In this document: positions 819 to 2,738 of the stretch, piece after piece
Layout of the letters: each line of letters begins with the position of its first letter
How positions within the stretch are numbered: position 1 is the stretch's first letter
From: Spirochaetales bacterium
Lineage (GTDB): Bacteria; Spirochaetota; Spirochaetia; Sphaerochaetales; Sphaerochaetaceae
Assembly: GCA_012838275.1 (NCBI GenBank)
Contig: DUPO01000188.1
Coordinates: forward strand, 7,623 to 71,622
DNA: 64,000 nucleotides
Direction: 5' to 3'
Notes under the pieces: generated by a model
What the model saw: the letters and a program-made list of their open reading frames with translations, nothing else
Databases searched by the model: none
What the model was told of the DNA's origin: nothing
Position numbers and translations under genes: made by a program

Positions 819-847
819 ATCAAATGGTTTGTTTTGGGTAACTGATA

Positions 848-856
848 TGGTATACT
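848..856 (+). promoter_or_regulatory. Putative extended -10 promoter (TGgTATACT)
   Basis: TG at 848-849 and TATACT at 851-856. The predicted start site near 861-863 coincides with the beginning of a hairpin. Confidence 0.45.
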
Positions 857-858
857 AA

Positions 859-887
859 TAGCCACAGGGTGTTATGCCTTGTGGCTA
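859..887. other. Inverted repeat / hairpin TAGCCACAGG-GTGTTATG-CCTTGTGGCTA
   Basis: Near-perfect stem read directly from the sequence. It could be the ygeY terminator or the 5' helix of a leader RNA. Confidence 0.6.
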
Positions 888-1349
888 ATTTGACCTCTCG
901 GATACCCATTCTGTTTTTCTCAAGATGATGGATGGTAGCATTTCGGGAGAAGGAGTTCCAAAGATGGCAATCTGGCCTATTGGACAACCAATCTGCTCAG
1001 ACGTTGGGATACTGACAAAAATTCCCCGGTTATTACCACCTAACAGCGTATCTGAAAAGTCCTTAGGCAACAGTAAGGAGTGTAGGACTATACATCCTGC
1101 TTCCCTGGTTGCCATAATCGCCGGTATGCACTGCAAGCCCTTTTGTTTCTTTTGATGGAGTATCGGGCTAGGCAAGACGAACTGGATACAACAACACTTG
1201 GGAAGCCTGGTGTATCCTTGTAAATTCTGCTTCCCACCTTCCTTGCTGCCAGCGGGCAGCTTGTGATGCCGGAGTTCGGACGGACTTCACCCTCATGGAC
1301 ACTTGAAGTGTTAGTGAATCCATGGTGAAGTCATCATGTAGGAGAACCT

Positions 1350-2738
1350 ATGAAGGATTCGTTATTACTGAAGAATATCTTCTGTCTTCAAACCAGTTTT
1401 GACAAAGAGGCATATAAGGGTGCCGACCTGCTGATTGTTGGCAATAAGGTAGCCAAGATCGCTCCTAAGGGCGACCTTGTAGCTGCTGAAGGTGTGAGGG
1501 TCATCGACTGTTCGCACCATGTGGTCATCCCAGGTTTGGTAAATACCCATCACCATTTTTACCAGACATTGACGCGCAATCACCCTGCTGTGCAGAATGC
1601 AAAGCTTTTCGACTGGCTCAAGTTTTTGTACGACGTATGGAAATATGTCGATGATGAGGCAGTCTACTACTCCTCCATGCTGGCCATGGCCGAACTGATG
1701 AAGACCGGCTGTACTCTGACCACCGACCATCATTATCTCTACCCTCGCTCCTTCAAGGGCGATCTTATGGGATTGCAGTTTAAGGCCGCTGACCAGCTCG
1801 GGATGCGTTTCAGCCCGACAAGAGGTTCGATGAGCCTGAGCAAGAAGGATGGGGGACTTCCTCCTGATAGTGTGGTCCAGACCCTTGAAGAGATTCTCAG
1901 CGACAGTGAAAGGTGCATAAAGACCTACCATGATAGCGCCCCTGATGCGATGCACAAGATAGCTCTGGCCCCTTGCAGCCCTTTCAGTGTTACCAAGGCT
2001 CTGATGACCGAGACAGCGGCTCTGGCACGCAAGTATGGAGTCAGGCTCCACACTCACCTCTGTGAGACCGCTGACGAGACTGATTTCTGTCAGGAGATGT
2101 ACGGGACTACTCCCGTAGCCCTGATGCAGGAGTGCAATCTCATAGGAGCCGATGTCTTCTATGCCCATGGGATTCACTTTAACGATGATGAGTTGAAGAT
2201 CCTCAAGGATACGGGATCACATATCGCCCATTGCCCCTCTTCAAACATGCGGCTGGGCAGTGGTATCTGTCGTGTGAATGAAATGTTGAAAATGGGTATA
2301 AATGTCGGTATCGCCGTTGATGGTAGTGCAAGCAATGACAGTTCTGATATGCTTGCAGAGGTACGACAGGCACTGTTGCTACAGCGTGTCCACTATGGTT
2401 CCGATGGCCTTACAACCCAACAGGCTTTCACTATGGCCACTGAGAACGGTGCAAAGATGTTGAATTTCGGTAACGTAGGAAGGCTAGATGAGGGATGGGC
2501 GGCGGATATGGCAATCTTTGATGTCTCCACCATTCCTTATGCAGGGAGTCAGAGCGACCCTGTTGCTAGCCTGATTTTCTGTGGCAATGACCACAATACT
2601 GAGTATACGATCATCAACGGGAAGGTTGTAGTTGACCAGGGGCAGCTGGTAGGATATGACGAGAAAGAACTTGCCGATAAGGCAAATGCCATCAGCGCCA
2701 AGCTTATGGATAAGGCTGCCAGAAAGGAGGCATTATGA
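1350..2738 (+). CDS. 8-oxoguanine deaminase-like amidohydrolase (SsnA/AtzB superfamily)
   Basis: NTHHHFYQTLTR metal motif, PCSPFS motif, HTHLCET, HCPSSNMRLGSG, DGSASND. AGGAG RBS at 1340-1344. Confidence 0.8.
   Translation: MKDSLLLKNIFCLQTSFDKEAYKGADLLIVGNKVAKIAPKGDLVAAEGVRVIDCSHHVVIPGLVNTHHHFYQTLTRNHPAVQNAKLFDWLKFLYDVWKYVDDEAVYYSSMLAMAELMKTGCTLTTDHHYLYPRSFKGDLMGLQFKAADQLGMRFSPTRGSMSLSKKDGGLPPDSVVQTLEEILSDSERCIKTYHDSAPDAMHKIALAPCSPFSVTKALMTETAALARKYGVRLHTHLCETADETDFCQEMYGTTPVALMQECNLIGADVFYAHGIHFNDDELKILKDTGSHIAHCPSSNMRLGSGICRVNEMLKMGINVGIAVDGSASNDSSDMLAEVRQALLLQRVHYGSDGLTTQQAFTMATENGAKMLNFGNVGRLDEGWAADMAIFDVSTIPYAGSQSDPVASLIFCGNDHNTEYTIINGKVVVDQGQLVGYDEKELADKANAISAKLMDKAARKEAL

Follow-up and report, generated by a model that had tools for sequence, protein, structure and literature searches.

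Several translational riboswitches, for example preQ1-II, SAM-II and SAM-V, are built on H-type pseudoknots that lie beside the ribosome-binding site (RBS), and the purine-related riboswitches include the guanine/adenine class and the NMT1 xanthine/urate class. Degraded genes can be exapted into regulatory small RNAs, and translational coupling operates at junctions where a stop codon overlaps the Shine-Dalgarno sequence (SD) of the next gene. Decaying pseudogenes are found among the intergenic spacers of Buchnera (PMC3164680).

The reductive uric-acid pathway of anaerobes has been described recently (PMC12507026). In this pathway, XdhD reduces uric acid to 2,8-dioxopurine, whereas YgfK and SsnA are responsible for dearomatisation and ring opening (PMC12507026). 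Given these roles, the genes ssnA-ygfM-xdhD form an operon of the reductive uric-acid pathway. We found no paper that links ssnA, ygfM and xdhD, the genes of this operon, to a riboswitch. Here we describe the spacer that precedes the operon in one window, that is, the whole stretch of 64,000 nucleotides of spirochaete DNA that was analysed. The features of the spacer are listed in Table 1.

Table 1. Features of the spacer and the adjacent gene, with positions in the window
Feature	Position	Strand	Remarks
Extended -10-like element TGGTATACT	848-856	+	Presumed operon promoter, inherited from the lost xdh genes
Hairpin H1	861-885	+	Stem of 10 bp; close to, or at, the 5′ terminus of the presumed transcript
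Tentative hairpin H2	906-931	+	CCATT/GATGG base, AT-rich top; base arms conserved in clades 1-3; read by eye
SD and ATG of the lost Mo-subunit gene	950-955, 964-966	+	From blastn alignment to G042
Drifting remnant ORF, 63 codons	964-1155	+	No coding substitution pattern
Neutrally evolving, indel-rich middle	~969-1176		p-distance 0.34-0.49, compared with 0.41 at ssnA 4-fold sites
Constrained 3′ block, non-coding FAD-subunit remnant, candidate structured leader	1177-1349	+	p-distance 0.107
P1 hairpin	1184-1190 with 1211-1217	+	7 bp
P2	1199-1206 with 1229-1236	+	8 bp; all cells (100%) paired; varies solely by G-C to G-U, in 4 species
CU-rich core CCTTCCTT, then GC	1237-1246	+	Predicted mostly unpaired in clade 1, P(paired) 0.3
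P3 hairpin	1245-1260	+	U-A to C-G compensatory change in 2 species
P4 mini-hairpin	1269-1279	+	Three pairs; one G-U to G-C change; weak by itself
P5 long hairpin	1283-1332	+	Outer 9 bp 1283-1291/1324-1332; apical 1298-1302/1308-1312
SD AGGAG (1340-1344) and ssnA start (1350)	1338-1352	+	Invariant in clade 1; local 5-bp hairpin possible
ssnA-like amidohydrolase gene	1350-2738	+	Directly 3′ of the spacer

Origin of the spacer

The spacer (819-1349, 531 nt) lies between a gene for an M20 peptidase (ygeY-like, ending at 818) and the ssnA-like amidohydrolase gene, which is followed by genes for an FAD-binding YgfM-like protein, a 959-aa XdhD-like molybdoenzyme and a YgeW-like carbamoyltransferase. 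The location of the spacer in front of a purine-catabolic operon, reported in a preliminary description of this DNA, is borne out by the ygeY-like and ssnA-like neighbours and by the ygfM-like and xdhD-like genes beyond them. The sequence of the window is also met in anaerobic-digester, biogas, manure and wastewater samples.

The comparison set consisted of 47 genomes of the genus Sphaerochaeta and outgroups; an ssnA orthologue is present in 47 of 48 Sphaerochaeta genomes. We denote as clade 1 the 14 species in which SsnA is at least 92% identical and the spacer can be aligned with that of the window. The 4-fold degenerate sites of the clade-1 ssnA genes, with a mean pairwise difference of 0.41, served as the neutral yardstick.

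In the preliminary description, about 490 nt of the spacer were taken for a single, highly structured leader. Only the two ends, ~85 nt on the 5′ side and ~170 nt on the 3′ side, are constrained: the mean pairwise difference within clade 1 is 0.21 for 844-927, 0.38 for 928-1168 and 0.107 for 1177-1349. The predicted fold of the whole spacer is only modestly better than that of shuffled sequences, and the z-scores for the sense and antisense strands are similar (-2.4 and -2.8, respectively), so that a highly structured leader of 490 nt is unsupported as such.

Three congeners (G006, G042 and G058) lack the long spacer and carry three genes of the xanthine-dehydrogenase family directly upstream of ssnA. 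In G042, these genes encode a 715-aa Mo-binding subunit, a 180-aa 2Fe-2S subunit and a 288-aa FAD subunit that contains FAD_binding_5 and CO_deh_flav_C domains. The order 2Fe-2S subunit, FAD subunit, ssnA is found also in ten more distant outgroup Spirochaetia, and the gene arrangement upstream of ssnA is therefore ancestral. In the intact congeners, the stop codon of the FAD-subunit gene overlaps the ssnA SD.

On the 5′ side, G042 possesses the promoter-like motif, H1, a second hairpin and an SD, all upstream of its first gene, and the clade-1 spacer can be aligned with G042 by blastn (68%, E = 1e-13) from the promoter through 19 nt (~6 codons) of that gene; the SD and ATG in this part of the spacer are hence the start of the lost Mo-subunit gene. 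On the 3′ side, a tblastn search with the G006 FAD subunit matches all 14 clade-1 spacers at one place, corresponding to residues ~228-273 (39-49% identity, E from 5e-7 to 2e-3 in a 7-kb database), and the blastn alignment of the 3′ block with G006 DNA reaches the SD, with E down to 3e-14. The match to the start of the Mo-subunit gene at one end and to the tail of the FAD-subunit gene at the other identifies the leader of the window as a deletion scar. Judging from these alignments, the spacer is the scar of a deleted set of Mo, 2Fe-2S and FAD genes that once lay between ygeY and ssnA, and 1177-1349 is a remnant of the last ~60 codons of the FAD-subunit gene. A match to a decayed protein-coding gene had been named beforehand, in the preliminary description, as grounds for giving up its proposal, and such a match is what was found, in the form of this scar of a three-gene xanthine-dehydrogenase set. 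An assignment of the middle of the spacer to FAD-subunit residues ~158-220, suggested by eye, was discarded, as the blastp match was not significant.

Both homology to genes at the same position in relatives and a disrupted reading frame, the marks of a gene remnant, are observed here. The third mark, evolution at the neutral rate, is seen in 969-1176 (0.38 vs 0.41) but not in 1177-1349 (0.107). By origin, the 3′ block is thus a remnant, but at present it does not behave as one.

Most Sphaerochaeta species have lost the three-subunit xanthine-dehydrogenase-type enzyme that is kept by their relatives (G006, G042, G058 and the outgroups L061-L080). The loss of this enzyme, encoded upstream, implies an altered entry of purines into the reductive urate pathway in the genus.

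At the 5′ end of the spacer, the element TGGTATACT, initially read as an extended -10, is invariant in 14 of the 14 clade-1 genomes and in 17 genomes of clade 2 (see below), and a related motif precedes the intact Mo-subunit gene of G042. A consensus promoter scan did not list this element because its -35 is weak. The pairing in the adjacent hairpin H1, also recognized from the window, is retained through A-U/G-C and other exchanges in clades 1, 2 and 3; the hairpin is not followed by a U-run and is therefore not a canonical terminator.

The preliminary description saw no credible long ORF in the spacer. A frame of 63-76 codons (925/964-1155) does exist but is a gene remnant that is not maintained. 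Its translation, from 925/928 or from 964, looks conserved; the pN/pS ratio is 0.79, compared with 0.82-0.98 in the other five frames, and codon periodicity is absent. The frame is broken in 4 of the 14 species and the stop position shifts, the ATG at 964 is missing in 4 of 14, and a search against 5.8 billion proteins returned one near-identical entry only. We therefore rejected this frame as a real gene, leader peptide or uORF, given the lack of a coding pattern, the broken frames, the unstable ATG and the single database match. The middle of the spacer has undergone large deletions in 4 of the 14 clade-1 species. The helix initially proposed at ~1060-1079 falls within this neutrally evolving stretch, is partly deleted in relatives and is not confirmed.

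Constraint and predicted structure of the 3′ block

The divergence of the 3′ block (0.107) is about one quarter of that at synonymous sites (0.41). Divergence drops at position 1179, from 0.34-0.49 to 0.06-0.20, with an abrupt step from 0.34 to 0.06. The sequence that flanks the block on either side shows neutral divergence in the same 14 genomes; in ssnA, 4-fold divergence is 0.33-0.47 over codons 1-400 and 0.22 over codons 400-462. The FAD-subunit frame is interrupted by stops in the window (G000) and in G054, no frame on either strand of the block is both open and characterized by a low pN/pS, and the variable sites occur in patches rather than at every third position. The block is no longer coding but constrained. 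A lack of conservation or covariation in relatives had been named as a further ground against the initial proposal; these 170 nt are kept in 14 species far below neutral divergence, without a coding signature in any frame, and their sense-strand helices are retained through compensatory and wobble changes.

A separate observation concerns the 3′ end of ssnA. The low 4-fold divergence of 0.22 in codons 400-462 (2550-2738) is found just upstream of the 4-nt overlap with the start of the ygfM-like gene (2735) and may reflect nucleotide-level constraint, for example, from translational coupling or RNA structure.

The structure of the 3′ block was derived from the alignment of 14 related species and tested on those same sequences, in which 98.3% of the 532 pair cells are standard; when the partners are slid by 1-3 columns, this fraction falls to 34-46%. 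Double-sided changes are observed in 3 pairs, compared with 0.6 in shuffles (1 of 500 shuffles reaches 3). Furthermore, 59 cells are G-U pairs that become mismatches if read on the opposite strand; this points to a sense-strand RNA rather than to a DNA signal. These pairing statistics are suggestive of a maintained RNA structure. Covariation within clade 1 is thin, with three compensatory pairs among 14 related species, and part of the complementarity may have been inherited from the coding sequence, because R1, a covariance model of the block, scores the gene end of G006 at 48 bits (among intact relatives, the scores are 48-50 bits for G006 and 6.8 bits for G042).

P1 shows one G-C to A-U compensatory change, which is the window's own, and three G-U variants. 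Alignment columns 3-37 (35 nt) are invariant except for four positions, all of which are in P1 and preserve its pairing. P1 and P2 interleave and would form an H-type pseudoknot with linkers of 8, 4 and 11 nt, which is sterically feasible; no other patch of the block varies as much as the 11-nt linker. The hairpin at P3 had been recognized from the window alone and is indeed conserved, with a compensatory change, and P4 sits within an invariant stretch of 19 nt (1263-1281). Of the compound stem originally described at P5, the outer part stands, being conserved with a single compensatory change (C-G to A-U) and several wobble variants, whereas in several relatives the inner CATGG/CCATG helix is disrupted. 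As described, the stem ends 7 nt upstream of the RBS, the AGGAG at 1340-1344. RNAalifold pairs 1338-1342 with 1347-1351, that is, it predicts a hairpin of the SD with the start codon.

RNAalifold also predicts a long-range helix, 1182-1189/1355-1361, that joins the 5′ arm of P1 to codons 2-4 of ssnA and encloses the whole block; this helix shows no covariation and is absent from clade 2. A role of the CU-rich core as an anti-SD was considered and rejected, as ensemble folding gives a core-SD pairing probability of ~0 in clade 1 and 0.06 in clade 2. No consistent long-range partner of the SD and no consistent switching helices appeared in the ensemble folding.

Contigs assembled from RNA libraries in three studies run unbroken from ygeY through the leader to ssnA. 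They are compatible with co-transcription of ygeY, leader and ssnA; such contigs carry no start, strand or level, and could stem from DNA carry-over. A contig break at 803/804 in one RNA run counts as no evidence. In two studies, the RNA contigs (683-2141) represent one shared strain variant, whose leader differs at 6 positions, namely 989, 1145, 1164, 1252, 1347 and 1348. The first three fall in the neutral middle, the fourth falls in the loop of P3, and the last two (CC to TT at 1347-1348) convert G-C to G-U in the SD hairpin, whose pairing is kept; no stem is disrupted by any of the 6.

The second lineage and the distribution of the block

Clade 2 comprises 30 other species that bear a scar, with a leader of ~250 nt that has the promoter and H1 in common with clade 1 and a different body. 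The CU-rich 8-mer CCTTCCTT is present in all 47 leaders of the genus (47/47), ~55-145 nt upstream of the start codon, and in 45 of the 47 it is extended by GC to a 10-mer, followed by a hairpin and then by a conserved short motif. In clade 2, an invariant hairpin analogous to P3 occupies the same place. One clade-2 stem contains five compensatory pairs, and a second stem presents a conserved G-rich loop in every species, on arms with quite different sequences. The G-rich loop is complementary to a C-rich hairpin loop, with A-U to G-C exchanges between both. A structured RNA is a well-supported prediction for the clade-2 leader, with a topology analogous to that in the window, namely, a G-rich loop/C-rich segment 5′ of the core and then a hairpin. 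Judged by covariation, the clade-2 leader is a better candidate for a riboswitch-like element than the block of the window.

The clade-2 leaders (L025-L057, e.g., L033:494-703), with their two strongly covarying stems, also contain a second CCUUG element, 10-12 nt upstream of the SD, with which it could pair locally.

In the SsnA tree, clade 1 is monophyletic (99/96), gene-bearing species are the sister group of clade 1 (89/88) and clade 2 is paraphyletic. The junctions differ as well, in that clade 1 retains the SD and ATG of the first gene and clade 2 does not. The tree and the different junctions together indicate that at least two separate deletions left and preserved the tail of the FAD-subunit gene. 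In a sister lineage, this gene tail seems to have been reshaped into another fold.

Searches of 150 genomes of the family with R1 detected only the window's clade and the coding homologue in G006, besides one marginal hit. This hit, L024 in another genus (G149:C1:1387357-1387473), scores 24.6 bits, is not located beside ssnA or ygeY homologues and is probably spurious. The structured core, flanked by hairpins, is present in one copy per genome; additional copies of the core elsewhere in five genomes were dismissed as chance-like matches that lack the hairpin. A metagenome scan with an 18-mer yielded 23 stretches, of which just 2 are true relatives, and the power to detect covariation was not raised.

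Proposed role and comparison with known systems

The comparisons above establish the origin of the 3′ block, its constraint, its loss of coding and the maintenance of its pairing. Its action as RNA, in cis, on translation is what we infer, and we consider it somewhat probable that a gene remnant now serves the ssnA-ygfM-xdhD operon as a structured leader that acts in cis. A deletion removed the Mo, 2Fe-2S and FAD genes between ygeY and ssnA and spared the old promoter with its 5′ hairpins, the first gene's SD and start codon, and the end of the third gene; most of this material now drifts neutrally. On this reading, the last ~170 nt (1177-1349) would have been taken over as a non-coding element of the sense-strand RNA, consisting of the P1/P2 pseudoknot, an invariant, exposed CU-rich tract, three more hairpins and a small SD/AUG hairpin.

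The element would act in cis on the ssnA-ygfM-xdhD mRNA, most probably by governing how accessible the RBS or how stable the message is. A putative effector, be it a protein, a small RNA, the ribosome or a small molecule, could make contact with the tracts that are invariant and unpaired (the core, the 8-nt linker of the pseudoknot and 1263-1281), and the helices and the SD hairpin would jointly determine initiation at 1350 or message stability. Translation of the FAD subunit presumably influenced initiation at ssnA before the deletion, given the stop/SD overlap, so that the gene tail would have mattered for ssnA expression already at that stage. The cis-regulatory RNA of the preliminary description is accordingly narrowed: it is a reasonable reading of 1177-1349 only, the leader as a whole being a deletion scar. 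The other possibility it had raised, an independent ncRNA, is unlikely, because neither a terminator nor a dedicated promoter is seen; no intrinsic terminator (a GC-rich hairpin followed by a U-run) was detected in 600-1600 on either strand. From the compared sequences, the 3′ block appears to behave like a functional non-coding RNA element and is a candidate for one that is absent from Rfam; the origin of this structured mRNA leader is unusual and well documented.

More specifically, a metabolite riboswitch could reside in the 3′ block, with an aptamer for a purine catabolite such as urate, 2,8-dioxopurine or xanthine and an expression platform that controls translation of ssnA, a possibility that we deem unlikely. 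The long invariant unpaired tracts between conserved helices, the pseudoknot adjoining the RBS, the clade-2 leaders with their riboswitch-like covarying stems around conserved loops, and an operon that encodes the reductive uric-acid pathway (PMC12507026) are all in line with it. The distribution weakens this reading and makes it less likely: the block is found in a single copy per genome, at one locus in one genus, and does not recur across taxa or pathway genes as a riboswitch class does. Furthermore, clades 1 and 2 differ in architecture, as a ligand pocket seldom does, the element arose recently, after a deletion within the genus, and ensemble folding did not reveal consistent switching helices. 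There is also no match to an Rfam family. The search of the 64-kb window returned nothing at the gathering score of any family, among them purine (RF00167), NMT1/xanthine, ZTP, preQ1 and SAM-II, in agreement with the preliminary description, which could not match the leader to purine, NMT1/xanthine, TPP, B12 or c-di-GMP aptamers; within 600-1600, nothing was found at E ≤ 1, the best matches (E of 1.8 and 5.9) being to unrelated families. The leaders of six congeners gave no match either, and the purine and NMT1 xanthine/urate models matched neither the window nor the congener leaders, even at E ≤ 1-10. Slightly more doubtful still is the version of this idea under which a urate-pathway riboswitch arose de novo in one genus, from the 3′ coding end of the FAD-subunit gene, with two lineages that reached two folds around a shared invariant core.

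Similarly improbable is conservation of the 3′ block as DNA, as an internal promoter, as operator sites for a transcription factor that controls ssnA-ygfM-xdhD, or as both. Strong conservation immediately upstream of the operon start is compatible with such a function, and the end of the ancestral gene could have held an internal promoter, but no pair of sigma-70-like hexamers was found in 1177-1349, and a sigma-54-like reading fails: in the would-be sigma-54 promoter at 1207-1225, the -12 element falls in the most variable patch. Near-invariance over 170 nt is long for an operator, and the variable positions in the stems keep the pairing, including G-U pairs that are meaningful only in the sense-strand RNA.

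A non-functional remnant with incidental conservation, due to a recent recombination tract or a mutational cold spot, is disfavoured and in our view very unlikely. The block is, to be sure, a demonstrable gene remnant, and the rest of the scar drifts neutrally; this reading nevertheless runs against the neutral divergence on both flanks in the same 14 genomes, variable sites that are patterned by the predicted structure, and the presence of the core 8-mer in every one of the genomes examined. Continued translation of the block, e.g., as the C-terminal part of a small protein through frameshifting or an unusual start, is extremely unlikely, for although G061 has a single frame of 116 codons from the old start into the block and the homologous frame is open in most clade-1 species, that frame contains the stops in G000 and G054 and has a pN/pS of ~1 with other frames no better, the variable sites cluster in loops and not at third codon positions, and the rejected 43-codon frame inside the block has lost its ATG in the window and meets an immediate stop in G060.

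If the reused gene tail is a working leader, it documents the birth of a structured regulatory RNA whose coding ancestor survives in sister species; an internal control is then available in those portions of the scar that evolve neutrally, and a second lineage has reshaped the same material differently. The block would also be a point at which the reductive uric-acid pathway of anaerobes is controlled (PMC12507026). If the block is not functional as RNA, the case illustrates how a deletion scar can pass for a ‘long structured leader’, and that signal and drift are told apart only by comparison with relatives.

The structured leader proposed here resembles preQ1-II, SAM-II and SAM-V in its two interleaved helices, short linkers and invariant unpaired nucleotides, and in its location at most ~100 nt from the SD, without a terminator. 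Unlike these riboswitches, the block has no Rfam match or known ligand and is confined to one locus in one genus; it is larger, with three extra hairpins, and in its predicted fold the pyrimidine tract does not capture the SD. With the purine-related riboswitches, the block shares the context of purine/urate catabolism, but its architecture is unrelated and their models do not match it. Like the pseudogene remnants of Buchnera (PMC3164680), the scar is syntenic with an intact gene, has a broken frame and for the most part drifts neutrally. Unlike a decaying pseudogene, its last 170 nt are under strong non-coding purifying selection, with RNA helices kept. The overlap of the FAD-subunit stop with the ssnA SD in the intact relatives corresponds to the junctions at which translation is coupled; in the window, no ORF reaches the ssnA junction, and such coupling can therefore no longer operate. 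As in the small RNAs that derive from degraded genes, a former coding sequence would here have gained a non-coding function, the difference being that the product would be a cis-acting 5′ leader rather than a trans-acting sRNA.
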